Below, piece by piece: positions 3,457 through 63,800 of a stretch of DNA of 64,000 nucleotides. The translations under genes and the position numbers were made by a program. A model generated the notes under the pieces. It had not been told where the DNA came from and searched no databases. It saw only the letters and a program-made list of their open reading frames with translations. Position 1 is the first letter of the stretch. Each line of letters opens with the position of its first letter. The stretch spans positions 1 to 64,000 of the forward strand of contig KE561068.1 of NCBI GenBank assembly GCA_000442015.1, given 5' to 3'. Origin of the DNA: Rozella allomycis CSF55. Its lineage: Eukaryota.

Positions 3457-3530
3457 TGCTCCCAGCAGGGGTCGAACCTGCGGCCTTCGCGTTATTAGCA
3501 CGACGCTCTAACCAACTGAGCTATGGGAGC
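3457..3530 (-). tRNA. tRNA-Ile(AAU), copy 2
   Basis: Identical 74-nt sequence to 537-610. Confidence 0.97.
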
Positions 3531-11680: not shown

Positions 11681-12478
<798 letters not shown>

Positions 12479-12628: not shown

Positions 12629-13201
<573 letters not shown>

Positions 13202-13307: not shown

Positions 13308-13380
13308 CGCCCCGCCTGGGGATCGAACCCAGAACCTTGCGGTTAAAAGCCGCACGCTCTACCGATTGAGCTAACAGGGC
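13308..13380 (-). tRNA. tRNA-Lys(UUU)
   Basis: Reverse complement GCCCTGTTAGCTCAATCGGTAGAGCGTGCGGCT-TTT-AACCGCAAGGTTCTGGGTTCGATCCCCAGGCGGGGCG. Confidence 0.96.
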
Positions 13381-14560: not shown

Positions 14561-14642
14561 TGATTGAAGAGGGGTTAGAACCCTCGCCTCCGAAGAGATC
14601 AGGGCCTAAACCTGACGCCTTAGACCACTCGGCCATTCAACC
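14561..14642 (-). tRNA. tRNA-Leu(UAG), atypical T-loop TTCTAA
   Basis: Reverse complement GGTTGAATGGCCGAGTGGTCTAAGGCGTCAGGTT-TAG-GCCCTGATCTCTTCGGAGGCGAGGGTTCTAACCCCTCTTCAATCA, with a long variable arm. Confidence 0.92.
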
Positions 14643-15390: not shown

Positions 15391-17165
15391 ATGTTTCGAC
15401 TTGCCGCAAAGAATACACTTTCAACTCTTAAGAAGCCACTTGCTTTTTCACCAAGATTATATTCTCAAGCTAAAGAAATCCGATTTGGGGATGACGGACG
15501 CAGTGCCATGGGCAGAGGAGTCAATATTTTGGCAAATGCAGTAATTATATTGAATATCTTTGAAAGGTTGCTGTTACCCTTGGCCCAAAAGGAAGAAATG
15601 TTATTATTGAGCAATCATATGGTCCTCCAAAAATTACCAAAGATGGAGTAACAGTTGCAAAGGCAATCACTTTGGAAGATAAGTTTGAAAACTTGGGTGC
15701 TCGTGTAGTTCAAGATGTCGCTCATAGAACAAATGAAGAAGCTGGAGATGGAACAACTACAGCTACCGTTCTTGCCAGAGCTATATTCACCGAAGGATTA
15801 AAGAGCATTGCCGCAGGAGTCAATCCAATGGATTTGAGAAGAGGTGTGACTTTGGCAGTTAACACTACAATTGATTTTTTGAAATCAAATGCTACAACGT
15901 AAGAACTTCTAGCGATTTTCAAAAGTGTTACAACACCTGAACAAATCAAACAAGTCGCAACAATTTCCGCTAACGGAGATGAACATGTAGGACAACTTAT
16001 TGCTGATGCTATGGTTAAAGTTACTAAGGAAGGTGTCATCACTGTCCAAGATGGAAAAACTTTGAATGATGAATTGGAAGTTACTGAAGGAATGAAATTT
16101 GATCGTGGTTTCATTTCGCCATATTTTGTCACCGACGCCAAGTCCCAAAAAGTTGAATATGAAAATGCACTTATTTTGCTTTCTGAAAAGAAAATCTCTA
16201 ACGTTCACGATATCATTCCAGCTCTTGAAATCGCCGCTACAACAAGACAACCTTTGTTGGTTGTTGCTGAAGATGTTGACGGAGAAGCTTTGGCAGCCAT
16301 GTTGGTTAACAAATTAAGGGGACAAGTTTCTTGCTGTGCAATTAAAGCTCCAGGCTTTGGTGATAACAGAAAGAACATTCTCGAAGATATTGCTATTGTT
16401 TCTGGAGCCAAAGTATTCAATGATGAAGTTAATACCAAGTTGGACAAACTCACTCGTGATCAATTGGGAGTTATTGCCAACGCTGTTATTACCAAAGATG
16501 ATACAATTTTTATGAATCTTAAGACTGACGCTACTTTGGTTCATGAACGTTGTGAAGCTATTCGTCAATCAATCAGTGAAACTACTTCAGAATATGAAAA
16601 AGAAAAACTTCAAGAACGTTTGGCCAAACTTCGTGGAGGAGTTGCTGTTATCAAGGTTGGTGGTGTTTCAGAAGTAGAAGTTGGTGAAAAGAAAGACAGA
16701 TTCGTTGATGCATTGAATGCTACCCGTGCTGCTGTTGAAGAAGGTATTATTCCTGGAGGTGCTTCTGCTTTGGTCAAGGCTGTTCCAATCATAAATGAAA
16801 TGGCTTCTAAAGAACAAAACTTTGATGTTAAATTAGGACTTCAAATTGTAGCTAAAGCTATTCAAGCACCACTAAAGACTATTGTTGACAATGCTGGACA
16901 AGAAGGTGCAGTTGTTGTAGGACAAGTTTTATCTAACCACAAAAACTTCCCATACGGATACAATGCTGCCATTGGTGAATATTGCAATATGATTGAATCT
17001 GGAATTGTTGATCCCTTGAAAGTTGTTCGCACCGCATTGAATGATGCATCTGCTATTGCTTCTTTATTGTCTACATCTGAAGCTGGAATCGTCTCTGTTG
17101 AAAAGAAGGAATCAGGATCCGCACCAGGAATGGGAGGTATGGGTGGAATGGACGGTATGATGTAA
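15391..17165 (+). CDS. HSP60: mitochondrial chaperonin Hsp60, 2 introns
   Basis: Presequence [47 protein letters not shown] tail. Confidence 0.98.
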
Positions 17166-20021: not shown

Positions 20022-23000
20022 TTAACGCCTTTCTTTAACAAATACTTTCAGAAGTGCAAACGCAAGGATTAAAAGAGAACAGAACATCACCGACAAAATT
20101 ACAATGTTGCGCCAGTAGCTTTTAATGTTAAATCCAAACTGATTTAGAATAATAGTTCCGGGTATCTTTTAATGTTGTATAATATCTTTACCTCTATTTC
20201 TACAACGTCCGTATCGTGAAGGTTAATTTTGACGAGTTCATTAACGATCATAGCTTCGTAACCATAATTAAAGACACTCAAGTATTTTAGCCACGAAAAC
20301 ACTCCAATGATTTTATCTTTGTTTAATAAAAATCCAGAAAATAACATTGAGAATAGCATTGTCAAAGTTGCAACAAGGTTTCCAACAGCAGCGTGTTTGA
20401 AAATAAGTGCGATTACAAGGCATATAGCAGCGCAACATAAATTGAACAACACCAGTGCTAATAAGAATTTGGGCATTGCGTTATCCAATGGATACAATCC
20501 AACCATGTAATATACAATGGAGCCGAACAGCAAAGGAGGTACAGTTCTTAGTGGAATGATATCGAAAAGAATTTTTGTTACAAAATATGCCGATGGAGAA
20601 TAGAAGCCATTCGATCTTTCTCGAGTAAACAACAATCTCTCTGGCGCAAATAGTTCTAGACTTGTTAAACTACTTAAACCAAAAAATGCACAAATAAAGA
20701 ATAAACATCCGAGTCTATTTTGTACTCCTGGCAGATCATTCGATACCTGCCAGAACAAGAAACCAGTAAAGACAGCTAAAACCATGCTAATTAAATAATG
20801 AGAGAATAATAGGAATGGATTCCTGTAAAGATTTAAAAGAGTGCGGCCTGAAAGAATAGAAATCTGAGTGAAATAGGAAGCTCCTTTCAACTTGTCTCTA
20901 GAGTGCATTGTATCAAGGAATAAAGCAGAACTTGTTTGATCTAAATTGTTTTTCAAAGAGTGCATTAAAGTCTCCCCTGCCGAGGTTTGATAAAAGGAAG
21001 AAGAAAACTTTTGAATTCTTTTTTCAATATCAGTTAGGTCATTATCACTGGGTATAACGGATATTGTATTTGCGGACTTTTGGCGATGATGATTTTGACG
21101 ATGGTGGGGCTTCTTAAAAAATGAAGAAAGAAAAGATTTCTTTTTAGGTGAGTATTGAGTTGTTGGAATCTCAGTAGATAATAGCTGTTTTCTTTCTGGA
21201 GATCTTGTTGGCGACCTTTCGGGGGAAATGTCTCTTACAGGAGAATTGTCTTCGGATGAAAATGATTTCGATGATGTTTCTGAAGCTAGCATATCTTCAC
21301 TCTTCAATGTTAAATCTATTAAGAAATCAGCTGTATTGTATCCCAGAGGACATGGGTATCCAAATGTTTCAAAATGATTGCCCGCAGCATTTGCTACTCC
21401 ACTATAAACCTGTGATAGTAAATATATGAAAATACCATTTGTCCATTAGCTAGCAATAACAATTTATCAAACTTTGTATAAATATTTGATCTAGGCTGAT
21501 GAATCGTAAAGATTATAGTTCTATTGTAATCAATAGCCAGACGTGATAATGTTTCAATCACTACAAAGGCATTATAAGCATCCAAACCAGAAGTTGGTTC
21601 ATCCAAAAACAAAATGGGCGGAGAAGTAACCAATTCTTGTGCGATGCTAACACGTCGTTTCTCACCACCCGAAATTCCTCTTTTTCCAGGGGCTCCAATC
21701 TTTCTATCAGCGATGTGAGATATCCCTAATTCATCCATAGTTTGTTGAACTCGATGCTTTTTGGCTTTCAATGACATCTCTCGAGGTAATCTCAACATGG
21801 CCGAGTACATTAAAGTTTCTCTCACAGTCAAAGTACCCAACAAAGTATCTTCTTGGTCTACAAATCTTTTAAATTCTACTTTGATATATTACCCTATAAC
21901 TTTCTTAAAATCTTTGGGGTTTATTTCAGTCCCATTAACACTAATTGTTCCACTACATGTTCCCATCTTGGATTTTCCAGCCAATATATCAAGACAAGTA
22001 CTTTTTCCAGCCCCTTTGATAAGCAAAATAGGTGTTAGTTACCAGATCCACCCATAATCGCTAATAGTTCTCCAGGTTTAACAATGCCAGATACTTTATC
22101 TAAAATCTGCCTATCACCTTTATTAAACATGAATAAAAACAATACCTATCTTATAACCAATGTTTTCAAAGGCAAAGCAAGCTGGAATATGTGATGCAAT
22201 CAGCTTTTCACTCTCATCTGCTACATCTCCATCATCTCTGCCCAATAGTCTTTTCTGTCGTTTCACATAAATCTTAAATGCTTTTATTTCTTTAGCAATT
22301 TTTTACCCATCCCCAAAAAGGCTACAAAAACGATTGCAGAAAAGCCAATCCCGACAATTAAAGTTGAATCAACAGTTTTGATCGGTGGCTTTTTCATTTG
22401 AATTTTATTCTTACTTCATATCCTGGAATTTGACTAGGGAGTAGACATTCACCAGTCTTGCATTTCAATTCAACACCATTACTAAAATAAACATCCAATA
22501 CAGGCTCTAAGTAATAATTACTCACTATGAAAAATACCGCTAAACAAGCAGTTGGTACTGTTCATGCACTTTAAACTTCCAGGGCCTTGCACAGCGTCTA
22601 GAGCATCTGTAATGTCTATACCATCCGGATCACACAATAATGTTCCAGGCGCACATTTACAACTCGCTTTGGGACAATAATATTCAGTTTCATTATTTGG
22701 CTCTAATCAAATACAAAATATTCAACTACTCTTTCGCAAATTACAATTTTCTAAATTGCAATAAAAGTTCTCTTCGTTCATCACAAAAACTATCGTATAT
22801 TTTTTAGATATTTACATTGAATGGAACATGTAGACTGCTCATAAGCACTAGGCGCTGTACACTGAGTTGTAACATATGGCTTTTTGTCTCCCAACCCCAT
22901 TTGCAAAAGCGGTGGCAACTTGACATCACATGATCTAAACTGTTTGTTAACCACAATGCCTTCTTTGTAACATGTAGCATTAGTCCCAGGACCAAAAAAC

Positions 23001-25099: not shown

Positions 25100-26532
25100 A
25101 TGGCATCGACTTCAGCTACAAAGCCTATCTGGGAGGACACTCAAGCCCTCGAAGACTTGGGCCAAGAAATATTAAGAGCATCCACTGAGGACATTATGAA
25201 TCGCACTCGTTTGCTCGAAAATGAAATCAAGGTAAGGAGTTTCATAAGGATCAATAGATTATGAGAAGTGAATTAATGAGACTTCAACATGAACAAGCAA
25301 CTATGGAAGACAGCATAAAAAGCAACAAAGAAAAAATTAAGGTGAACAAGCAAATGCCATACATTGTGTCAAACGTTGTCGAAGTACGTGTCTTATTTGT
25401 TTATAAAAAGGTACTGGATGTCAATCCAGAAGATGAAGAAGAGGAAGAAGGTGCTAACGTGGACTTGCACTCCAAGATTAAGGGTAAATGTGCAGTAATC
25501 AAAACCTCCACTCGTCAAGTAAAACTAAAATTTCAAACTTTATTAGACTATTTTCTTACCAATGATCGGTTTAGTCGATCCTGACAATCTTAAGCCCGGT
25601 GATTTGATTGGTGTTAACAAAGACAGCTATTTGATTTTGGAGGCGTTACCAACCGAATTTGATTCGAGAGTTAAAGCTATGGAAGTTGATGAGAAACCCA
25701 CTGAGGATTACAATGATGTTGGTGGTTTAGATAAACAAATAGAAGAGTTGGTTGAAGCTGTTGTTTTACCGATGACACACAAGGAAAGGTTTCAAAAGCT
25801 TGGAATTAAACCTCCAAAAGGAGTTTTAATGTATGGTCCCCCAGGAACAGGTAAATAAATACAGTGGGAATTATTAGGAAAAACTTTGTTGGCAAGAGCT
25901 TGTGCTGCACAAACCAATGCCACTTTTTTGAAATTGGCAGGACCTCAACTTGTTCAAATGTTTATTGGTGATGGAGCCAAAATAGTTAGGGATGCGTTCC
26001 AATTGGCGAAAGAAAAGGCACCTGCAATTATTTTTATTGATGAATTGGATGCTATCGGAACGAAGAGATTCGATAGCGATAAAACTGGTGATCGTGAAGT
26101 TCAAAGGACAATGTTGGAATTATTAAACCAACTTGATGGTTTTAGCTCCGATGACCGTATAAAGGTGATTGCTGCAACCAACAGAATTGACACACTTGAC
26201 CCAGCTTTGTTACGTTCTGGTCGTTTGGATCGAAAAATTGAATTTCCCCATCCGAATGAAGAAGCTAGAGCAAGAATCATTCAAATCCATTCCCGTAAAA
26301 TGACATTGGAACCGGATGTCAACTTTGACGAGTTGTCCCGTTGTTGTGAAGACTTTAATGGAGCTCAATGTAAAGCTATTTGTGTGGAAGCCGGAATGAT
26401 TGCCTTGCGCAGAGGTGCGGTTAGTGTTTGCCATGAGGATTTTATGGAAGGTAAGTTTGTTTCTCATTCGTGACCAAAGGTATACAGGAAGTTCAAGCAA
26501 AGAAAAAGACTGCCTTGCAATACTATGCTTAA
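25100..26532 (+). CDS. RPT5: 26S proteasome AAA ATPase Rpt5, 5 introns
   Basis: [48 protein letters not shown], ends KKTALQYYA. Confidence 0.98.
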
Positions 26533-27003: not shown

Positions 27004-27144
27004 ATGATATCATGGTAGGGTGAAGAAATAAATATTGAAAACTGATTACTGAATCGTCATATCTTATTCCCACTTTCATGAGTAAAAAATTCAACTTTAT
27101 TAATCTTTGTTTACATTGATACCCCTGTCCAATTTCGTCGCACA

Positions 27145-30100
27145 ATGGCAGACGTAGCAAGCAAAGCTAATGCTCCCCCTAGTGATCCTAAAAAGAAACC
27201 CGCTCAAACTGCAAGTCTAAACTTGGAGAAGAAGAGGGCGTTGCTGGATCAACGCCATCGCTACCTTCTTGAAAGATTTGCTGAGCAAATTAATGAAAAG
27301 CCCGCCGACTTGGAGAATTCCTTGCTCTACGGGAATAAGATTGAGATACTTAATGAGTTTTTTGCCGCTAATGGGCCCAAAAAAGTGATTTTCTTTTGGC
27401 AACCCCATAAGGTAAACAAACTTTGATGTTGGTATTTTAGGATGAGTGTCAAAAGTCAGGTGCAAAGAATTGTTTGATAGTAACTGATGGTCTTAGAGAT
27501 GGTATGGAAGGTCCCGCTGCTTACTATTTGCGTTTGAACACCAAAGCAATAACTACTGCCAATCTTTATACGGATATCATATATGGTGTCATAAATGAAC
27601 TGCTCCCATCTCTTCGTGATAGTATTAAGAATCTTATTATACCTGCTTTGAATGCTCAAGTAATCCATTTCAAACTATAAGATAGGAAAATTGGGGTGTC
27701 TTGGTTAAGAAGAAAAACGGTCCCATTGAAGAGTTCATGGAGGCTTTGAATAAGTTTGTTGAAACTGTGGATGTTGGTCTTAATAGTCTTAAAGACAACA
27801 TAAGATTGAATTCATCGCCAGTTGACCTTAGTCCATATCGTGCCGCCTCGCAGGTCTTGGTAGGCTCGAATAATCCTGAATTGGTGGGAACACTTGAAGG
27901 TAAACTACTAAAACTAGCGATATCAGGTCTTGTTGGTGAATGGTGTAAGCAGATTGAACAGGTATTGGCTGAAAGTGAGCAAATGAGAAAAGAAGCGGAT
28001 GACATTGGCCCTTACGCAGAATTGTCTCACTGGAAGTCGCGTATGGCAAAATTCAACAGTATCACGGACCAACTGAAGAGTCCTGATTGCAAAACGGTTA
28101 TCAATGTGCTTCATGGTGCAAAGTCTCGTGTGTTGAAGCAGTGGAAAGATTTGGACAACCGTGTTACTGATGCTGCAAATGAATCCAAGGACAATGTAAA
28201 ATATCTTTATACATTGGAAAAATTCTGTGAGCCCCTTTATCGTAGTGATCCCCTTGCAATGCAGCCTTCTCTTCCTGGTCTTATCAATGCTATCAAAATG
28301 ATCTATTCAATTTCAAGATACTACAATACCTCAGAAAGAATGACGTCTTTGTTTGTTAAGATAACTAATCAAATGATTACAAGTTGCAAGGAGTATGTGA
28401 ATGAGGATGGTTCCAAATTGTGGGAACATGACCGGGCCAAGTTAATGAGCAAGTTAAATGACTGTTTGAAACTTAATGAAGCTTACCAACGTATATTTCA
28501 TGAAACAAAAGTAAAACAAGTCTTTTATTAGCATAGAAAAAATTACAAGAAAAACCTGAAGAAAAACAATTCGATTTCAGTGAAATGTACATATTTGGAA
28601 AGTTTGATGCCTTTTGTAAAAGAATCCAGAAAGTTGTTGATATGTTTGATGTTATTGAGAAGTTCTCATCTTTGTCAACTCTCGGGGTTGAGGGAATGGA
28701 TTCATTGAATAAGAGATTTGATGGTATCATGAATCAAATTAAAAGAAAGCCTTATGATATGTTGGATCACAGAAAAATGGTAAGCATTGACTTTGATTCA
28801 CAACCATAGGAATTTGATACGGATTATGCAACATTTAAAAAGCAAATAGCTGATCTTGAAAGTGGTTTACAGCAATTTGTTGATGGTCTTTTCTCTAATA
28901 TTTCTAGCACTGAACGTTCATTGGAGCTCTTGCAAAAGTTTTCAAAGATTCAAGGCTTACAAATTGATTTGGAATCTAAATATCAAGCAATATTTGTCTA
29001 TTATACAAAACGTGATCTTGAAGCGTGCAGAAAGGCGTATCAAAAGTATAAAGAGAGTCCACCAATTGCCAGGAATACACCCCCTGTAGCTGGAAGTATT
29101 TCATGGGCACGTCAGTTGTTCAGAAGGATCGACCGCCCTATGCAAATGTTTAAGAATTGCCCATCCGTTTTGTCTTCTTCAGATGCAAAGAAACATATCA
29201 GAAATTTTAACATGCTAGCTTCTGCGTTGATTGAATTTGAGTTGTTGTGGCATAGAAGCTGGTTGAAGGCCGTGGACTTGGCTAAAATTGGGCTTCAAGC
29301 AACCGTGCTGGTTATCGATGCTGATACGTCCAAGGTGTATGTGAACTTTGATCCGCAAATATTGCAGTTGATTCGTGAGACTAAATGTATTCAGAGAATG
29401 GGACTTGAAATACCTGAAATGGCTAAATTGATGTGTTTGAAAGAAGCCGACTTGAAGGAAACCTACATGATGCTTCATCAAATATTGCGCAAAAAGTCTT
29501 CCTTGATATCCCGAATTCCACAAGTGTTAATTAAAGCTATGACGCCTCATATTGAAGAGTTGGATAAGGCTATTCAACCAGGATTGACATCCATCACGTG
29601 GACATCATTGAATTTGAAGAATTACATTTTAAATGTTCAAAAGAATCTTGAAAGACTAGAAGAGCTGACTGATAAAGTGCTTGATGTTAATGATTGTAGA
29701 ATTAATTCTGGACTGCAAAGAATTGCTGAAACTTGCTTGTGTGATGTTCCTTCTGAACATGAGCAATGGACTATTGAAGAGTTGGTGCAACGTTCTGAGA
29801 AGTGTTGTTCTCAAGTAGCAGAAGTGATTAATAGGAAGAGTGCGATGATTGAAATTGCATGTAATGATCTTATAAATATCCTGAAAACCAATTTGAGTGA
29901 GCAGAAAAAGGTTGAAATGAGTTCGGTTTATGAAGACGTGTTTAATTATTTCAATCATAAGATGGCTGACTCTCTTGTTCAAAGCACTAGAGGTTCGTTA
30001 GATTTGATAAAGACCAGGCTCGGAAGTGTGTCTAGTCAGTACGGAAAGGCTTTCAACCAAAAACCATTCTTCAAGGCAGAATTAATCTTGTCTATACCCA

Positions 30101-33100
30101 ATGTTGTAGTTTCTCCTAAATTGGAAGATATTCAAATGGCTTTGAATAAGACGTCGACGATGATTCTTGAAATTTCCAAAAAGATAACTGTATGGGGCCA
30201 AAGTTCACAAGGCGAGAGAAACTATTTCAGTGAAGTCTCTAATAATAAGGATGTTGTGAAAGTTATAATTGCACTGAATTCTACTATAAATACGACCAAG
30301 AAGGATGTTGAAACGCATCGTGAGCAGTTTGGAAAATTGGACAATCTTTGGAAAGAGGATCGTAATGAGAGTATTAAAAAGTTTTTGGAGACGAATCCTA
30401 CGCATCATGATTTTGAGAATGAAATTAACAGATATGAGATTGCCGAGAAGGAAGTTATGGAGATTATGCCAACGACGCAAATCAGTTCTGTGTTGATATC
30501 AGCTGAGCCGTTGAAGATTGCATTGTTGACTGAGACAAAGGCGTGGAAGCAGGCGTATGGATTTAATTTGAATGCCAAGGTGAAAAAGGATATGGAAGAG
30601 TTGATTGAATATATGGATAATAAAACTGTTAGATTGAATAGGAAGATTGTGGATATTGATGATATTAGACAAGCATGTCAGACACTTGCTGAGATAAGAG
30701 AGGCTGAAGTGAATATTGATATGAAGATATTGCCTATTGAAGAGTCTTATCATTTGTTGACAAAACATGGCATATCGGTGTCAAGGGAAGAAACCGAAAT
30801 GGTGGATTCGTTGAGATATAGTTGGAAAAAGTTGAAACAGTTGGTGATTGATGTTCAGGCGCATTTGACCAAAGTTCAGCCGACATTTAAGAATGATTTA
30901 GTACAAACTGTTCAAAAGTTTGCAGTTGAAGTTGATGAATTTTCAAAGGAATACAATGAGAAAGGACCGATGGTTTCCACTATAACACCAAAGACTGCAA
31001 GTGAGAGGTTGATTGTGTTTCAAAGATCTTTTGATGAAATTAATAGAAAATGGGAAACTTATTCAGCTGGAGAAGAATTATTTGGATTGTCTGTTACTCC
31101 ATTCCCATCGCTGGTTAAAATGAAGAAAGAATTAAAGTTGTTGCAAAATTTGTATGGATTGTATAACGCAGTGTTGGAGAAAGTTAGAGTTTGGCATGAA
31201 ATGTTGTGGACTGAAGCAGAATTTGAGCCAATAATGAACCAGCTGAATGACTTTGCAGCGCGTTGTAGAAAGCTTCCAAAGGCAATTAAAGATTGGGATG
31301 CATTTCAAACTTTGAATAATTTGATTAATGATTTTCTGGCGACTGTTCCATTGTTGGAATTGATGTCACATAAAGCTATCCAGCAACGTCATTGGGATGC
31401 GATCATGGAAGTGACAAAAACAACATTCAATTTAGACCCAGATGTTTTTTGCTTGAAGAATTTGATGGATGCGCCTTTATTGAAGTCATCTGAAGAAATT
31501 GAAGAAATTTGTACGTCTGCAGTTAAGGAAGCTGATATTGAGATTAAATTGAAAGCGATCGTTAATGAATGGACAGATAAAGAGTTTACATTTGCTCCAT
31601 TTAAGAGCAGAGGGTATTTGGTGTTGAAGCCGGCAGCTATATTGGAGATTATAACACAAGTTGAAGACAGTTTGATGGGACTTGGATCTTTAATGAGCAA
31701 CCGTTATAATGCCCCTTTTAAGAAGGATATTCAATCGTGGGTAGCTAAACTTTCAACTTGCAGTGAAATTATTGAGAATTGGTTGGCTGTCCAGAATTTG
31801 TGGATATATTTGGAAGCGGTGTTTGTTGGTGGTGATATTGCTAAACAGATGCCAAAAGAAGCAAAAAGATTTCAAAATATTGATAAAAGTTGGTGTAAAA
31901 TTATGGCTAGAGCGTTAGAGAATCCAAATGTGATTACATGTACAGTTGTTGATGATACCCTTGCCAATTTGTTGCCAAGTTTAACTGAGCAATTAGAGTT
32001 ATGTCAAAAGTCACTTTCAGGATATTTGGAGTCTAAAAGAAGTTTGTTTCCTAGATTCTATTTTGTTTCTGATCCAGCCTTGTTGGAAATTCTTGGACAG
32101 GCCAGTGATTCACATACAATCCAGGCGCATTTGAAGTCTGTGTTTGATAATGTTCAAACGGTGCAATTTCATGATAAAGAATATGATAAAATATTGGCAT
32201 TGGAATCTAGTGAAGGAGAAAGACTTCCATTGAGCAAGCCAGTAATGGCACAGGGGAATGTTGAAACATGGTTGGGTAATTTATTGCAGTGGATGCAGAT
32301 TACTGTTAATGATGTGATTAGAGAAGCTGTTGTTAGAATGAATGAAATGACATTACAATCTTTTCTTAATGAATATCCAGCGCAGATAGGTCTTTTATGT
32401 TTACAAATTCAATACACTACTATTTGTGAAGATGCATTGACAGCCTCTAAAAGTGATAAAAAAGCAATGGCGAATGCTAACCAAAAAGTGTCAGAAATAT
32501 TGAGCACATTGATTGAATTTACTACACAAGATTTGAATAAGATGGATAGAGTCAAGTATGAAACGTTGATTACAATTCAAGTGCATCATAAAGATGTTTT
32601 TGAAAAACTGTTCAAGACGCATATTAAATCACCGTTGGATTTTGAATGGTTGAAACAGTGTAGATTTTATTGGAGAGATGTTCTTGATTGCTGTATTGTT
32701 TCTATTACTAATTTTGACTTTAAATATAACTGTGAATATTTGGGATGTACTGATAGATTGGTTATAACTCCATTGACTGATAGATGTTATATTACATTGG
32801 CACAGGCACTTGGCATGTCACTTGGTGGTTCACCTGCAGGTAACTATATTGCTCATATTTTATAAAGGACCTGCTGGAACAGGTAAAACAGAAACCGTCA
32901 AGGATATGGGCAAAGCGCTTGGAAAATGGGTTGTCGTGTTCAACTGTTCAGATCAAATGGACTATAGAGGTCTTGGTAGAATATTTAAAGGTTTGGCGCA
33001 ATCTGGCTCATGGGGATGTTTTGATGAGTTTAATAGAATTGAATTACCAGTCTTGTCGGTAGCTGCGCAGCAGGTTGGTTGTGTGTTGGCTGCTAGAAGG

Positions 33101-36100
33101 GAAAGAAAGAAACAGTTTGTGTTTACTGATGGAGAGACTGTTGATTTGAACCCTGAAGTTGGATACTTCATTACAATGAATCCTGGGTACGCTGGGCGTG
33201 TAGCGTTACCAGAGAATTTGAAGACACATTTCAGATATGTAGCAATGGTAATACTTAATGTCAATTTTTATTAAAGATGGTGCCAGATAGACAGATTATT
33301 ATAAGAGTAAAGTTGGCTGGCTGTGGTTTCCAAAACAATGTTATTCTAGCTAGAAAGTTTTTCGTATTGTACAGATTGTGTGAAGAACAATTATCAAAGC
33401 AAGTCCATTATGACTTTGGGTTGAGAAACATTTTATCGGTGTTGAGAACATCAGGTGCTGTGAAGAGGGCGAGTCCCGAAGATTCAGAGAATTTGATTAT
33501 TATGAGAGTATTGAGAGACATGAATTTGTCTAAACTGGTTGATGAAGATGAGAATTTGTTTTTGAGTTTGGTGAATGATTTGTTTCCAGGGCTTGTTGCA
33601 AAGAAGGCTTCGTATCCTGAAGTTGAAAAAGCTATTGAGCAGCAGCTGGTTGAAATGAATCTGGTTAATCATCCACCGTGGGTGTTGAAAGTTATACAGT
33701 TCTATGAAACGTGCAAAGTGAGGCATGGAATTATGATATTGGGGCCAACTGGAGCTGGAAAGACCAAGTGTATTAATGTGTTGTTGAAAGCGATGACTGC
33801 AGTTGCTGAACCACACAAAGAGATTAGAATGAACCCCAAGGCTATCACTGATTACCAAATGTTTGGCAGGTTGGATGTTACTACTAATGATTGGACTGAT
33901 GGAATCTTTTCTGCCATCTGGCGAAAGACAATAAAAAAGAAGGGAGAGTTTATTTGGATTGTGTTGGATGGACCGGTTGATGCTGTGTGGATTGAAAATT
34001 TGAATTCAGTGTTAGATGATAATAGATGTTTGACGTTGGCTAATGGTGATAGAATACCAATGTCGTCTACGAGCAAATTAATGTTTGAAGTGCATAGTTT
34101 AGATAATGCATCGCCAGCTACTGTGTCTCGATGCGGGATGATTTATATTGGCATTGTGGCAATGACTTGGGATATTGTGATTCAGTCTTGGCTTAAAACG
34201 AGACCGAAGAATGAAGCTGAAATATTTGAACCTTTATTTAAAGATACTTTTGGTAAACAGCGTTTTATTTAGTTACAAAGGTGTTGCTGATCAGTTTGTT
34301 AATTTGGAGCTGCATCAAAAGATGGATGTTCCTGCTAATAATTCTATTGTTACTGTAGCTAACTTGTTGGATGGATTGATACCTGCGCAAGAGCAAGGAA
34401 AGGCTATTGATAGAGATCATATGCAAAGACTTTACATTTTTGCATTCTTTTGGTAACTATCCATGATTTGAAATATGACAGGGGTGTTGGAGCGTTGTTA
34501 GAATTAGATGAAAGAAAGAAATTGCAGAGTTTGATATTTGAAAAGTTTCCAGATCTATTGTATCCAAAGATGGAAGATCCAAATGATACAATTTATGAAT
34601 ATTATGTAACAGAGCAAGGAGAATGGAAGCATTGGAAAGAGAGAGTTCCTAATTGGGAGTATCCAACTGATTCTACTCCAGAGTTTTCATCTATTATAGT
34701 TCCTACAGTAGACAATGTGCGTGTTGAATTTTTAATTTCAACGTTATCAAAGCTGGGCAAGAGTGTTTTGCTTATTGGTGAGCCTGGAACAGCCAAGACA
34801 GTTACAATTCAAAGATTTTTAGCTAAATTGGATTCAGATGTTCATTTGAAGAAGAGTTTGAATTTTTCATCAGCAACAACGCCTATGATATTCCAGAGAA
34901 CTGTTGAATCATTTTTGGATAAGAGATTGGGATCAACGTATGGTCCGCCAGCTGGAAAGAAGATGACACTGTTTATTGATGATATATCAGCGCCCGAGAT
35001 CAATGTATGGTTGGATCAACCTACAGCTGAAATTCTGCGCCAGCTGGTTGAATACCAAGGAGTTTACAATTTAGATAAGCCTGGTGACTGGACATCCATT
35101 GTAGATTTGCAATTTCTGGGAGCCATGATGCACCCCGGTGGTGGCAGAAACAATATTCCAATGCGACTGAAGCGACATTTTAATATTTTTAACTGCACGA
35201 TTCCATCTGATGTGTCTGTTGACAAAATCTTTGGAACAATGCTGAGTGGCCATTTTCATGAAAAGCGAGGATTTCCTGAAGATGTTAGACAACTAGTTAC
35301 AAAGATTCCGAGTCTGACGCGTAAATTGTGGCAAGCAACCAAGACTAAAATGCTCCCGACGCCTGCTAAATTCCATTATATTTTCAATTTAAGAGATTTG
35401 AGTAGAATTGTAGAAGGGATGTTGTATTCCACAAGTGAAGTTGTGAACACTGCAAAGACATTAATGCTGTTGTGGGAGCACGAGTGTTCGAGGGTTTTGC
35501 CTGATAGATTTACAACGAATGAAGATATTGAATGGTTTAATAAGACTGTGTTGAGTGTTGTTAATAAGGATTTGGGGCTGGAATATTCAAAGTATATTCA
35601 GCAGAGAGCTTATTGGGTTGATTTTCTTAGAGATGCGCCTGAAGTTGAAGAGGGATCGGAGGAGGAGCCTGAAATGCCTAAAGTTTATGAAATGATTCCG
35701 TCGTTTGATCATTTGAGGGATAGATTGCAGTTTTTTATGAGACAGTATAATGAAACTGTAAGAGGAGGGAAAATGGTAAATTTATTTGTGTAATGTTAAT
35801 TATAGGTAAATTAATTCAGTGATTTTGATTGTAGGATTTAGTGTTGTTTGAAGATGCAATGAAACATATTGTAAAGATTAGTAGAATTATAAGAACACCA
35901 AGAGGTAATGCTCTGTTGGTTGGTGTTGGTGGAAGTGGAAAACAATCATTGACTAAATTAGCTTCTTACATTGCAAGAAACCAAATCTTCCAAATAACAA
36001 TTTCAAAGAACTACAATGCATCAAATTTAATGGATGATTTAAAGTTTATGTACAAGCTAGCAGGGTTACAAGGAAAGCCAGTTACATTTATATTCACTGA

Positions 36101-39100
36101 TAATGAAATCAAGGAAGAAACATTTTTAGAATTTATTAATAACATGTTAACATCAGGAGAAGTATCAAACTTGTTTCCAAAAGACGAAGTTATCATGATT
36201 TCATCCGACATGAGACCGATAATGAAGAAAGTCAGACCCCAAACAATTGATACAAATGAAAATTTATGGCAATTCTTTATTGACAGAGTCAAGAGCAATC
36301 TACACATAGTTTTATCATTCTCGCCTGTTGGAGACAAGTTTAGAAACAGAGCATTGAAGTTCCCTGGACTGATTAGTGGTTGTACAATGGACTGGTTTAC
36401 TAGATGGCCAAGTGAAGCGTTGAGAGCTGTTTCAGAGAAATTCTTGCAAGAATTTGACATTACATGTTCAGAGCAAGTCAAGATGGAAGTTGTTAACCAT
36501 ATGGCCTTTGTGCATGATTCTGTCACTGATATGTGTCAGCAATACTTTTTGCAGTTTAGAAGAAGCACCCATGTCACTCCAAAATCGTATCTAAGTTTTA
36601 TTAATTCTTACATGTCATTGTATAGCAAGAAGAGGAGAGAAGTTGGCGAGTTGAGTGACAGAATGAATATGGGGCTGTCTAAACTATTGGAAGCTACTAA
36701 ATCTGTTGCTGTGTTGAAAGAACAGTTGATTGTTAAAGAAAAGGATCTTGTTGTCGCCAGCAAGGAAGCCGATATTGTTCTAGTTGATGTGTCTGCTGCC
36801 ACTGCCGATGCTGAAAAGGTTAAAGAGGCAGTTTTAAAAGTCAAATTGAAGTCTGAGAGTATTGCGAATGCTATCAAAAAGGATAAAGAAGAAGCCGAAG
36901 GACAATTGGAAGCAGCCAGACCAGCGTTGGAGGAAGCAACAAAGGCATTGAATTCTATTCAGCCAGCGCATATTTCAACAATAAGAAAACTAGCTAAACC
37001 TCCACATCTGATTATGAGGATTATGGATGCTGTGCTGATTTTGCAAAAGAGGAGAATTGATGCTGTTATTCCTGATCCTGAGAGACCCTGTGTTAAACCT
37101 TGCTGGAGTGAATCTTTGAGATTAATGTCGCAGAGTGATTTCTTGTCTTCTTTAATCAACTTTCCATGTGATGAAATTAATGCAGAGACTGTGGAGCTGT
37201 TGGATCCTTACCTTGAAATGCCAGATTTTAATTTGGAAGGTGCAAAGAAGGTGTCGGCTGATGTTGCAGGTAACTTTTAATGTTGAAATTCACATTTAGG
37301 TTTAGCATCGTGGGTTAGAGCAATGTCATTCTATTACACTATCAATAAAAAGGTTATTCCGTTGAAAATGAATTTAGCAGTGCAAGAAAAGAAGTTGGAG
37401 ATTGCGATGGCTGATTTGAACAAGGCTCAAAAGACTTTGGATGAGAAGCAAGCTGAATTGGATGTGTTTAAACAGAAATACAATGCTGCTATAACAAATA
37501 AACAGGCGTTGCAAGATGATGCTGATTCTTGCAAGAGAAAGATGACTGCTGCAACTGCGTTGATTAATGGATTGAAGGGAGAGAAAGATAGATGGACATT
37601 GCAAAGCAAAGAGTTTGCAGAGCAGATTGGAAGACTTGTTGGTGATGTTATTCTGGCTACAGCATTCTTGTCGTATTCTGGGCCGTTTAATCAGACGTTT
37701 AGAACCCAGTTGCTGTCTATTTGGAAGGAAGATTTGAAAAAGAGAAAGATTCCGTTTTCTGCTGATGTTGATATTATCTCACTGCTTGTGGATGGCACTA
37801 CTATTGGAGAATGGAATATACAGGGACTGCCGACTGATGAGTTGTCTATACAGAATGGAATTATTGTTACGCAGGGAACGAGGTATCCACTGTTGATTGA
37901 TCCACAGGGACAGGCGAGATCATGGATCAGGAAGAGAGAAGAGAGCAGAGGGTTGATTGTTACGACATTGGGCAACAAGTATTTCAGACAGCATATTGAA
38001 GATTGTGTGTCGCAAGGGAAGCCATTGCTGATTGAAGATGTGGAAGAATCACTGGATCCAACATTGGACAATATTCTGGAAAAGAATTTGATAAAATCAG
38101 GGAAATCGTTTAAAGTTATTTTTGGAGAAAAGGAATTAGATTTTACTGAAGGATTTTGTTTATTCATTACAACAAAGTTGGCTAATCCGAGATATTCGCC
38201 TGAAATTTATGCAAAGACTTCTATTATTGATTTCACTGTGACGCAAAAGGGATTGGAAGATCAATTGTTGGGAAGAGTTATAATGAAGGAGAAGCAGGAA
38301 TTGGAAACGGAGAGATCCAAGTTGCTGGAAGAGGTTAATTCTAATAAGAAAAAGATGAAAGAATTGGAAGATAATTTACTGCAGAGATTAACTTCAACGC
38401 AAGGGTCGCTAGTAGATGATGAAAGTTTGATTGAAGTGTTAGCCGTTACTAAAACAACTGCAGAGGAAGTGTCTGAAAAGTTGGTGATTGCAGCAAGCTG
38501 AAACGCAAAAGAAAATAACGATTGCGAGAGAAGAATACAGACCAGTGGCTACTAGAGGATCTGTTTTGTATTTTCTTATTGCTGAAATGTCAATGATTAA
38601 TATAATGTACCAAACTTCATTGAGACAGTTTTTGAAGCTGTTTGATGAATCAATGTCGAAATCTAATCCGTCGCCTATTCCTTCAAAGAGAATTCAGAAT
38701 ATTATAGAGTATTGCACGTTGAGAACGTTCAAGTATATGGCTAGATCATTGTATGAAGAACACAAGCTGTTGTTTACATTGTTGTTGGCTTTAAAGATTG
38801 ATATGTTGGCTGGAAAGATTCCGTTTGATGATTTTAGATGTTTTATTAAAGGAGGAGCAGCGTTAGATATTAATGCAGTGATGAAGAAGCCATTTAATTG
38901 GATCTCTGATATGACTTGGCTGAATCTAGTTGCTTTGAGTAAAATTAATTCGTTCCAGGATATTCTCAATCAAGTTGGAAAGAATGAAAAAGCTTGGAAG
39001 AGTTGGTATGAAAAAGATTCGCCTGAAAATGAGCCGTTGCCTGGTGGATATTCAAACACTCTGGATTCATTTAGAAAATTAATGTTGATTCGTTCTTGGT

Positions 39101-41028
39101 GTTTAGACAGAACTATTGTATCTTCTAAACAGTATATTGCTGATTCTCTGGGACAAGTTTATGCTGAATCTCAGGTGCTTGATTTGGATGCAATGTTGGA
39201 AGAGAGTGACAATAGAACTCCTTTGATTTGTTTATTGTCAACTGGTGCTGATCCAACGGCTGATATTGAAAGTTTATCCAAACGACATAAAATTGATATG
39301 AAAGCAATCTCGATGGGTCAAGGACAAGAAGTTCATGCTAGAAAGTTAATGACGAATTACATGACGAATGGTGGTTGGGCTCTACTACAAAATTGTCATT
39401 TGGGTATTCCTTTTCTTGAAGAATTATTGGTAATGATTCTGGAAACTGAACAAATTCACGAGAAATTTAGATGTTGGATTACTACTGATGTGAATGAAAA
39501 ATTTCCTATAAATTTATTGCAAGTTTCTATCAAATTTACGAATGAACCACCTAGAGGTATTAGAGCTGGATTAAAGAGAACTTATGGTTGGTTAACTCAA
39601 GATATGTTGGGTAAAATATATTCCTTCAAGTTTATTCTTAGATATTTCTGCTAGACCTCAGTACAAACCATTGATTTATGCTATTGGATTCTTACATACT
39701 ACTGTTCAAGAAAGAAGAAAGTTTGGTCCTTTAGGTATCCATTATTATCAATTTCAATTCTAGGTTGGAATATTCCATATGAATTCAATCAATCTGATTT
39801 AGCTGCCTCAATCCAATTCTCTCAAAACCATCTTGATGAATTACAACCAAAGGCTCCTATTTCCTGGACTACCGTTAGATACATGTTCTGTGAAGTTCAC
39901 TACGGAGGACGTGTTACAGATGACTATGACAGAAGACTACTAGTCACTTACGGAAAGACTTGGTTTGGTGATCACATGTTTGCTGACAACTTTCAATTCT
40001 ACAAAAATTACACAATCCCTCATCTCAAATCAATCGACGAGTACAGAAAAGTTATTGAAGAAGTTCCCCTGGTTGATTCTCCCGAAGTTTTCGGTCTCCA
40101 TCCTAATGCTGATATCTCCTGTCAAACTAAAGAGTCTAATTTGATGCTGGATAATATTCTGTCGATTCAACCAAAAGATTCGGGATCTGGGACTGGTGAA
40201 ACTAGAGAAGATGTTGTAAAGAGAATCGCTAATGATCTTTTAAGCAAACTACCTGAAGATTTTAACAAGCATAAAGTTAAACAAGCTATCGTCAAGCTTG
40301 GTGGTCCAAAACCTTTGAACATCTTTCTTGGTCAAGAAGTTGATAGAATGCAGACAGTCATTATTAAAACAAGATCGATTCTACAAGATTTGAAACTAGC
40401 TATTGACGGTACAATTATCATGAGTCCCCAGTTACAACAATCTCTCGATGCTCTCTATGATGCACGTGTTCCTCTTGCATGGGAAAAAGTTTCTTGGAAA
40501 TCATCAACTCTTGGCTTATGGTTCGCTGAACTCGTCCAAAGAACGCTGCAATTCCAATCATGGCTCTTTGAAGGCAAACCAAACGTATTCTGGCTGTCCG
40601 GCTTCTTCAATCCCCAAGGGTTCCTCACCGCCATGCGCCAGGAAATCACAAGAGCGCATCAAGGATGGGCATTGGATAACGTCAAACTACACACAGAAGT
40701 TTTGCGCCAGATGAAAGAAGATATCACTCAGCCGCCAGCCGAAGGCGTGTACATCCACGGTCTGTTTATTGAAGGTGCTGGCTGGGACAGGAAGAATACA
40801 CGGCTGGTTGATTCGCAGCCCAAAGTCATTTACATGCAGATGCCCATTGTTCATGTGTCCGCTATCAACTCGACGGAAGACCGCGATCCCAGGTTCTATC
40901 AATGTCCGGTTTACAGGAGACCTAATAGGACAGATCTCAATTATGTGTTTGATGTGGAATTGAAGACTCAGCAGAATCCTGATTATTGGATTTTGAGAGG
41001 AGTTGCGATGCTGTGTTCTACAACTTAA
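27145..41028 (+). CDS. DNAH5: axonemal outer-arm dynein heavy chain (DNAH5/8, gamma-type), 13 introns and one apparent frameshift near 38495
   Basis: P-loops [26 protein letters not shown] and [24 protein letters not shown]; ends [11 protein letters not shown]. Confidence 0.95.
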
Positions 41029-60849: not shown

Positions 60850-63800
60850 TCACCAAAACGGACACCAACCAATATAGCACTGACACAAATTCTCCACCGC
60901 CGTCGCCTGCTGAATGAGCTTATCAACCTGCGCGTGTATATCCAGCGTAACACTAGTCTTAAAATCGCGACCTACATAACCACTACAACATCACCCAACC
61001 TGTAAGTTTATTCGACACTCTGGTAATAACAGCAACGGCTTTAGAATTCAAGACTTCGCCAAACGAGTCTTCATTCTGCAAATCACTTGATTTCTTGACC
61101 AGATCTTTTTTTGGCTCGTTATTTGATAGGATGCGCCAGTTGATTAGTGGATCGTAGACGAATGCTTCGAGGACGGCCATGAGACTGTCCTTGTTGGAGC
61201 GCAGGACTCGCATGACGTTTTCGCAGGTGATGCGGAAACTGCCTTCGATGCCACTGACCTAGCATGCATAAGATTAAAAGGGGTTACTTCCATTGCGTTT
61301 GAAAGCATGCGTGTTAATCTGAATGGAATCTTTTCAGGAAATTTGTCTCTGTGCATTGCAACTTCAAAGCAGTCGCCAAAGTCAATGTGGATTATTTTTC
61401 CAGAGATTCTGTCGAGCATTAAATTTGAAGGGTGTCGGTCGCCAAGCCCTGTTGAAATTACATGTAAATGGGATACCTAGAATGTAGCCGACCATTGACA
61501 TGACAGCCAGCGATCGCGTGTAATTTGTTCTTCTTTCAAGCCAAGCCTTGAAAATTATTACTGAATTAATTTACTTCAGAGTTTTTAGATTTGAGCCATA
61601 AAACGTTATACAAATCTTGACCATTAGTGTTATTCAAAGCGGTTTGGAACACTTCAATCTTTTGCAGCAATGTCAAATTATCATAATCGGGTGCCATCTA
61701 TTAATCAATGATCACTCTTATTACTTGGAGCATCATTCGGTGTTCAACATTCAACAACACTTTTCTTCCTTCTCTGTATTCCCTAATAAGTGCATGCAGC
61801 GTATCGCAATGAGGAACCCATCCTATTAAGAACAAACATCAATTAATACCTAGCAGCCCAGAGTTTTGAGAAAGAGGAATAGCAGGATACCTCTGAATGG
61901 ACAAATGCCGTTTAAACGTTTCAGGATCAGACGCCAAAATATTATTAACGAGCCCAAACAACTGCATAACTCGCTCATCCTGTCTCAAATCTTCGTGTCC
62001 TTTTAACAAGTATTGATATATTTTCCCATCAGTCCCTTTAATTGAACATTTACGCGGTCTCTGCTTTGAAGTAATAACAGTCAACGTTGGATGGAACATT
62101 TGGATTCTGATTATCTGTGAATTGGATTTATAAGTGCCTGGAACAGCCAATTCCAAATCTTTCGCGTTTAATAGTTTAGGTGAAATGTATTGTAGATCTA
62201 AACTAGTCATTTGAGATAGTTGCTTGGTGATTCTCTTAAACACGTGGTAATACAGATCCCATGCCATATTCAAATCATTAACGTTGTTTGATTTCTTGTA
62301 TTTTTTACACCAATCATTCGCTTCTTGTAAATCTCTTCCATACGCTTGCGTAAATGAAATCTCTCTCAACGTCTCTGCACCCCTTTCCATCATCAAATGC
62401 AGCGGTTCCAAAACACCAAGCATCCCTCATCTCCTATAAACTAAATGTTTACCTTCAATATTATGATCACTAAAGTACAATCTTGACGCTTCTTCCAACC
62501 CCTCATGCCAAACTTCCTGCCACAAAATAGCGACTCTAATCAGCTCTTGACTTACAAGCAAAACCTAAAACAAATCAACTAAAATCATACCTGCTCAACT
62601 AGATGTAACGAATGCGACTTCATCTTTTCAATAATAGCCAACGCCGACGTCTTTCTAGAATACGACGTAGATTTCGAAGCAACAGTCAGAGAATACACAA
62701 GCGCCTGCGGATGCTCCTTCCCAACATCATTCAACACACAATGAATCAATCTCCTAACCTGCGGCGTCGGCGCATGAATCCTCGCAATCAACTGCGGAAT
62801 AACTTGCAGCCAAGTGTCAATCCTCACCGAATTGAATCCCTAGCTGATCGCCATATTGACTTCAGGATGGTATCCGTATTTAAACATCAGCGTCAATAAC
62901 CTCAACGTATCTTGCAGCGAATTTTCAAATGACAGTGAAATCGATTTAAAGAATCCTTGCACAGCCGGCACTACAAATGAAACGATCGTTTGCTTGTTGC
63001 CCTGCCCACTCTTTTCCATATCAGACACAACCTATAATAACATTGTCAATTCATTACCTGGAAATTAGCCAACGCCCATGAATGCCACGCCTTGTACCAT
63101 TCAGGATTAAATCTAGTCGCCTCCAAAAACGCATGAATTATACTAGAATGCGAATCATCAGACAACAACGACTATTCACCCATACAACATTTAATTACTT
63201 TTTGGTATTGACCCAATTTATGGTAACATTTAGCCAACAATTTTGAATGCTCATTGATTGAAAATGTTTCTGAATTTGATTCTGAATTTTTCCTAATTTC
63301 CAAATCACCCGCCAAATTCAAAGTAAAATCGTACAAACTCTTCAATGTCTCCACCTTGTCTCTAGTCTCCCACGAATATTTCAAAAACGAATAAATTATC
63401 AGTGGCGGCGACTGGTCAAAAGAAATCAAATTCAATGGAATAGAATTCAGCAGCCCAGAGCCCAGTGATTTACTTGCTTTCAACGAAGAACCCTTCAACG
63501 AAGATTCTTTCAACGCCAACACTTTATCCACCTCGGCGTTTTTAAACACAAAATTGTTTTTAAACAAATCCAGAAATATTTTATTACAAATGCTAAACCT
63601 CCCAGCTTTCCTGCACAGATTAGCAAACTTTATCCACATTTCAATATTCTCTTCAGGCTCCATTACAAGCGATCGTATTTTTAAAATTCTCTGCCAAACT
63701 TCCACATTCCTTTGACAGCCACTCAATCTTTTCATCCAGCATTCTTTGATAATTGGCTGCTTTTCAGGATACTTTTTAAATGAAATAATCTCTTCCAACT

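Follow-up and report, generated by a model that had tools for sequence, protein, structure and literature searches.

Where introns are commonly some 28 nt long, is an intervening sequence of 59 nt one long intron, or two ordinary introns lying end to end? The question is raised by the gene for an outer-arm-type axonemal dynein heavy chain in Rozella allomycis CSF55 (GenBank assembly GCA_000442015.1, contig KE561068.1, positions 1-64,000 of the forward strand; these 64,000 nucleotides are hereafter called the window). At 35776-35834 (+) the coding sequence of this gene is interrupted by 59 nt, consisting of a 30-nt and a 29-nt unit placed end to end and referred to here as the dynein twin. The two units are probably complete U2-type micro-introns separated by a zero-length exon, each of which would be recognised alone and removed in one of two successive reactions.

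The local sequence reads ...gggaaaatg/gtaaatttatttgtgtaatgttaattatag/gtaaattaattcagtgattttgattgtag/gatttagtgttgtttgaagatgcaatg... (slashes mark splice junctions throughout), with the codons AAA ATG before the units and GAT TTA GTG after them. Unit 1 (35776-35805, +; GTAAATTTATTTGTGTAATGTTAATTATAG, GTAAAT..TATAG) is 30 nt long with 83% A+T, and unit 2 (35806-35834, +; GTAAATTAATTCAGTGATTTTGATTGTAG, GTAAAT..TGTAG) is 29 nt long with 76% A+T. The 3' splice site of unit 1 touches the 5' splice site of unit 2 at an AG/GT junction (35804-35807, +), forming the zero-length exon. The upstream exon (34482-35775, +) has the C-terminal end ...NETVRGGKM and closes in phase 0, while the downstream exon (35835-37269, +) contains the ...GVGGSGKQS of an AAA module. 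A first-pass annotation, made from the letters alone, had described two complete micro-introns abutting at AG/GT between KM and DLVLFEDAM, and its sequence, coordinates and reading frame are confirmed here. It had further presented this as the second such pair in the dynein heavy chain; the architecture does recur, but the other twin lies in a Rab5-like gene (12171-12226), and the remaining 12 dynein introns are single units.

Homologues define how much of the interruption must be lost. The relatives P0003, P0113, P0004 and P0070, retrieved by protein search, read through the site without a gap, and in a tblastn of the region over 80 fetched loci, L001 (a 13.7-kb metagenome/metatranscriptome contig that also served as the reference for modelling the dynein junctions) and a further 13 loci that cover the query in full are likewise continuous across it. 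The whole 59 nt must therefore be lost, with D following directly on M. Retention of unit 1 brings in an in-frame TAA at codon 6, and retention of unit 2 alone an in-frame TAA at codon 3; either unit left in, in the dynein and Rab5 twins alike, results in an in-frame stop codon, as is expected of sequence that must be spliced out. Two other partitions of the block were rejected. A micro-exon lost between the units is ruled out by the lack of any gap relative to homologues (in both dynein and Rab5), and a 47-nt alternative intron (35788-35834) would insert the residues VNLF, found in no relative.

The two units conform to the rules followed by introns throughout the window. Compared junction by junction with L001, the 13 intervening sequences of the dynein gene measure 29, 26, 27, 26, 30, 28, 29, 28, 29, 59, 30, 31 and 29 nt; the 59-nt block is the sole length outlier and equals 30+29, the other 12 spanning 26-31 nt. 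Among 42 confident introns in the window, 41 are 26-31 nt long (the last is 34 nt) with a mean of 28.1 nt. These introns start with GTA in 41/42 cases, carry A at position 4 in 34/42 and A or T there in 41/42, end with AG in 41/42, and have interiors composed of 33% A and 42% T. Candidate introns linking open reading frames (ORFs) over the whole window cluster at 26-30 nt on both strands, above a flat background. An intron here is thus essentially GTAA followed by about 21 AT-rich bases and (T/A)AG, with little other signal. Both dynein units have the GTA[AT] start, AG end, length and AT-richness of such micro-introns.

Families of related introns, such as would arise by introner-like spread, are rejected, since shuffled interiors give equally many high-scoring pairs: in an all-against-all comparison, 6 real pairs score at least 6 against a shuffled expectation of 5.0, and 1 scores at least 9 against an expectation of 0.5. 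Two introns elsewhere in the window resemble dynein unit 2. That at 61547-61574 (-) has its first 15 nt in common with the unit (GTAAATTAATTCAGT, 15/16 bases), and that at 25851-25877 (+) has a similar 5' stretch (GTAAATAAATACAGTG, 14/16 bases). Likeness of this degree is expected, because the shuffle control of AT-rich interiors matches it.

The second twin occupies 56 nt of a Rab5-like GTPase gene (about 11681-12475, +), which is unbroken. Its unit 1 (12171-12197, +; GTGAAAATATATATTTGTTTCAATTAG) is 27 nt and its unit 2 (12198-12226, +; GTATAATTTTTATTGAACCAATATTTCAG) 29 nt long, so that both are in the length range, and the inner junction AG/GTAT is complete. The block is flanked by ...VVALIANK and SDLNGKRC.... 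The exon before it corresponds to residues 91-119 of a solved Rab-5A chain (7bl1_DDD), and residues 2-42 of the exon after it correspond to residues 121-161 of the same chain; the exons being contiguous on this structure, all 56 nt must go. The same gene holds a separate anomaly at 11930-11956 (+), where a 27-nt in-frame insertion between ...VKFE and IWDTAGQE starts with GTAAGT and contains a TGA stop. The insertion ends ...GATTG and has no AG past its 8th base: either its 3' splice site is non-canonical, or the assembly has a wrong base here.

Removal in two steps would follow from the rules that the other introns obey in their splice sites and lengths. Under intron definition with a tight length optimum, a donor would pair with an acceptor 26-31 nt downstream; applied to the dynein twin, this rule would give two pairs of donor and acceptor, 35776 with 35805 and 35806 with 35834. 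Since the units touch, two spliceosomes would hardly fit on them at once, and removal would be consecutive. The order would be free, with either unit going first. If unit 1 were excised first, ...ATG would be joined to G35806, regenerating the donor ATG/GTAAAT; if unit 2 were excised first, ...TATAG would be joined to GAT, regenerating the acceptor. The AG/GT junction would thereby act as acceptor in one reaction and as donor in the other, in the manner of a recursive splice site.

Close relatives differ at this position. The first-pass annotation had proposed looking for a single intron here in orthologous dynein genes; the locus L015 has one, with an offset of 1 nt, and other relatives have no intron. 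L015 is a metagenome contig of 1.5 kb, and its translation, once spliced, agrees with the window protein in 286/412 residues (69% identity). Its single 31-nt intron (L015 402-432; ...AAA ATG G/GTATGAAATAACTATCACTCTAAAAACATAG/AT CTT GTA...) sits 1 base downstream of the twin position, in phase 1 as against phase 0. Past ...ADVVLADVT, L015 carries another micro-intron, one that is absent from the window. P0034, 94% identical to L015, has an ORF that begins right past the twin point and stops at the next micro-intron of L015. P0113, which comes from a 26-kb contig and shares 82% identity with L015, reads through the site, like P0003, P0004 and P0070. Many of the 14-kb relative loci are probably transcripts, and as such uninformative on introns, while a metagenome scan with the exon alone as query recovered no relative. 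Among the relatives compared, a single unit is found elsewhere and the doubled form in the window only. Introns at or beside the twin site are therefore gained and lost among close relatives, and the single intron of L015 is compatible with one ancestral unit that was doubled later.

The most serious competitor to two-step removal is a single 59-nt intron, cut in one reaction from the donor at 35776 to the acceptor at 35834. The inner AG/GTAAAT would then be an unused and as yet undecayed relic of the block's origin, for example by duplication of a 30-nt intron. We consider this unlikely, although several observations favour it or otherwise weigh against the removal of two separate units. The intron of the ribosomal protein P0 gene (10363-10501, -), at 139 nt far above the norm and devoid of internal AGGT, is removable by this spliceosome, which shows that longer introns are spliced too and that length alone is no bar. 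Between the interiors of the dynein units there is some likeness (p=0.031; 153/5,000 shuffles reach their score), which could reflect a recent duplication in which the inner sites are so far unmutated; a tandem-duplication origin is faintly suggested. The L015 intron may not be orthologous to the twin, because of its offset of 1 nt and its different phase. Only two twins were found within the 64 kb.

Against these points stand the properties of the inner sites themselves. The inner acceptor lies at a distance from the outer donor that is used by 42/42 confident introns (26-34 nt), and skipping it would contradict every other one of them. The units of the Rab5 twin are not alike (p=0.76 from shuffles) and nevertheless keep both the inner AG/GTAT and in-range lengths, which points to maintenance rather than recency. 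Nor does RNA folding offer a way past the inner sites: the folds do no better than those of shuffled sequences (z = -0.67, -0.96), so that the inner sites are not hidden and the effective distance between the outer ones is not shortened. Consecutive removal of two micro-introns accordingly remains our preferred reading of the block.

It is far less probable that the inner AG/GT arose by chance within an ordinary long intron. Splice signals in this genome are short (GTA[AT], AG), and the pattern GTA..AG/GTA..AG, with units of 24-33 nt, can be read at 9 places in the window (11 rows) when no coding filter is applied. The pattern alone is not diagnostic, because several of these occurrences are exon sequence beside a single intron. 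At least 4 of the 9 places are of exonic nature: in 12332-12383 the first half is the Rab5 exon NVNEVFTQI beside a single intron, in 62426-62478 the first half encodes the exon ...LYFSDHNIE beside a single intron (in a gene that we take to be TOR), in 26451-26508 the second half is the C-terminal exon of an AAA ATPase, again beside a single intron, and 35881-35935 lies wholly within a dynein exon. None of the candidates at 20507, 24160, 25384 and 55989 passed the coding-flank filter. When abutting units were sought with coding-like flanks and at least 60% A+T per unit, 3 places were left, namely the two twins and the false 62426-62478.

The expected frequency of such a junction was estimated from 400,000 simulated introns of 59 nt, with GTAA and TAG ends fixed and interiors drawn from a first-order Markov model of the 42 confident introns. 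AG/GTA[AT] with both units 26-31 nt long appeared in 450/400,000 of them (0.11%), and in 0.14% of simulated 56-nt introns; the looser AG/GT with both units 24-34 nt long appeared in 5,555/400,000 (1.4%) and 1.3%, respectively. In comparison with these 0.11-1.4% per intron, the pattern is present in 2/3 of the verified introns longer than 34 nt in the window, and the two blocks, at 56 and 59 nt, have double the length of a unit. The figure of three counts those long introns that were verified, since the screens for 35-160-nt introns (by ORF linking and by codon-usage score) are too noisy to furnish a denominator; these screens gave no verified intron of 35-55 nt, which is not proof that none exist. 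The twin architecture is real and non-random, in agreement with the first-pass annotation, which had argued against chance on the ground that two of the few introns over 40 nt share it. The remaining long intron, that of P0, has TGATGA...CTGA motifs and a weak full-length match to a C/D-box small nucleolar RNA (snoRNA; SNORD36, 20.7 bits, E = 0.8), below the gathering score of 30.

The genomic reads bear on whether the block is present in the organism as assembled. Contigs from two DNA runs cross the dynein twin with 0 differences (33686-37078 in X1, 34311-37222 in X2); a third run, X6, has no useful coverage of it, and the RNA run X10 gave 10 short pieces at 90-95% likeness, none of them at the intron. 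The window may itself derive from X1 or X2, which are therefore not independent confirmation. There is no bubble at the twin, which is spanned by single contigs, and the unitig depth at that point roughly equals the two haplotypes combined, both of which therefore probably carry the twin. The second haplotype is visible elsewhere in the dynein gene, as synonymous-looking differences spaced in multiples of three bases. At 38492-38495 (+) the window allele has 4 additional bases that cause a frameshift (KLVIAA / AETQKK), and a minority contig without this insertion, which would be in frame, has a depth of 104/307 in X1 and 264/607 in X2. An assembly duplication, or neutral mutation of a dead allele, is the least credible origin of the twin: the frameshifted window allele and its intact minority counterpart would suit decay, but the twin is crossed without differences or bubble at the combined depth, is apparently carried by the intact haplotype, and has its parallel in the different and unbroken Rab5 gene.

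As to how the block was doubled, a resident intron may have acquired a second unit at its side: it may have been duplicated in tandem, or a new intron may have been gained at the AG/G that its own 3' end creates. The likeness of the dynein units could speak for the former, the dissimilarity of the Rab5 units does not, and gain at AG/G is conceivable. A similarity of another kind is found in the calmodulin gene, where a 26-nt intron (12999-13024, +; GTATTTGACGCGTGGCATGTAAATAG) is followed by the exon sequence 13025-13050 (GTATTTGACAAAGATGGAAATGG), the first 9 nt of the two being identical. This similarity is beaten by only 32/5,000 shuffles, a p-value that is generous because the likeness was noticed after the fact; the intron looks as though it arose from exon sequence duplicated in tandem.

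A more general proposal, which we advance tentatively and with some doubt, is that Rozella introns are quantised at about 28, about 56 and perhaps about 84 nt. The spliceosome might measure length so tightly (about 26-31 nt) that sequence without special content could grow in whole units only. Longer blocks would then be chains of micro-introns removed recursively via zero-length exons, and new introns would be born beside old ones, by duplication or by gain at AG/G. The few long introns might survive through cargo such as a snoRNA.

The twin can be placed beside several known forms of compound splicing, and may be regarded as a variant of recursive (zero-length-exon) or of complex-intron splicing. 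Ratchet points, in Drosophila and in vertebrates, subdivide very long introns, which reach tens of kb in Drosophila. The twin departs from this, its whole block being 59 nt and each part a minimal intron of standard length. Dual-specificity splice sites use one AG/GT as acceptor or donor, alternatively rather than consecutively, and the twintrons of Euglena are nested group II/III introns and not spliceosomal. With these the twin shares, respectively, an AG/GT that could serve in either role and the compounding of introns.

The zero-nucleotide-exon recursive splice sites, or ratchet points, that are described for long Drosophila introns in bioRxiv 10.1101/006163 offer a close parallel. In the twin, as in these, an acceptor directly abuts a donor inside the intervening sequence, AG and GT being juxtaposed, and no exon bases are kept; a splice site would be regenerated in a multi-step removal. 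The stepwise removal is demonstrated in Drosophila and inferred from splicing rules here, and the Rozella units, unlike ratchet points, could go in either order.

Stwintrons, known from filamentous fungi and yeasts and presented in PMC9024468, PMC8469720 and PMC5639578, likewise consist of two U2-type intron units that are excised consecutively. In the definition given by PMC8469720, a splice element of the external intron (donor, branch-point element or acceptor) is split by the internal one, so that the external intron cannot function until the internal one has been excised. Both the stwintron and the twin are fungal two-unit blocks, but the units of the twin lie side by side rather than nested, with both donors and both acceptors intact. 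For Lipomyces starkeyi, PMC7138796 describes a block whose removal may take either one reaction or two, and this ambiguity is that of the twin. Small duplications are proposed as the origin of stwintrons and complex intervening sequences in the corresponding passages of PMC9024468, PMC8469720, PMC5639578 and PMC7138796.

Each twin unit taken singly is an ordinary member of the micro-introns of Rozella and microsporidia (GTAA...TAG, 29-30 nt, AT-rich). The S23 introns of R. allomycis are called 'short (~30 nt)' in a passage of PMC6349667, and a passage of PMC8042348 reports, for the fungi that it compares, intron medians between 29 and 197 bp, without naming the species at the lower end. The passages on micro-introns in these two sources mention no abutting pair. 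A search of the literature outside the Rozella genome paper and its supplementary tables met with no account of complete micro-introns that abut, whether in Rozella or in other organisms.

Should the two units be spliced separately, the twin would constitute minimal natural recursive splicing via a zero-length exon, in a genome working purely by intron definition. The length optimum, and not just the sequences of the splice sites, would then decide which sites are paired. The twin would also illustrate a simple route of intron gain, by copying or insertion beside an existing intron, in the lineage towards the almost intron-free microsporidia. Gene predictors and intron-length statistics for micro-intron genomes would need to allow for concatenated introns. 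Should the block instead be removed in one step, the finding would reduce to an evolutionary footprint of intron doubling.

The gene that hosts the dynein twin extends over 27133-41028 (+), with about 4,500 codons, 13 intervening sequences and a TAA stop at 41026-41028. It is co-linear with a 4,519-aa ORF of L001 (tblastn coverage 27133-41025), at 61-91% identity per segment downstream of 28537 and 30-65% over three N-terminal segments (27133-28516). Named relatives, reached by a protein search that returned sequences of 838-2,390 aa, are annotated 'Dynein heavy chain 5/8, axonemal' (DNAH5/DNAH8), with 55-61% identity, and the precomputed Pfam matches on relatives include PF12775, PF17857, PF12780 and PF12777. 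The similarity is full-length and co-linear, including the AAA modules and the stalk, as in axonemal outer-arm dynein heavy chains. The window uses the standard code, with long ORFs free of TAA and TAG. A ciliate code is ruled out, 1,351 codons being open under the standard code and the dynein gene ending at TAA; a TAG that seems to lie in frame at 39652 results from reading on into a 31-nt intron as if it were coding.

Other features of the window include a mitochondrial HSP60 gene (15564-17165, +), whose 412-aa exon (15927-17165) matches the NCBI protein 'Heat shock protein 60, mitochondrial' of Rozella allomycis CSF55 at 99% identity, which marks the window as R. allomycis or a strain very close to it. 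There is a single N, at 1882. Four tRNA genes, all on the minus strand, are located at 537-610, 3457-3530, 13308-13380 and 14561-14642, the first two of which score identically.

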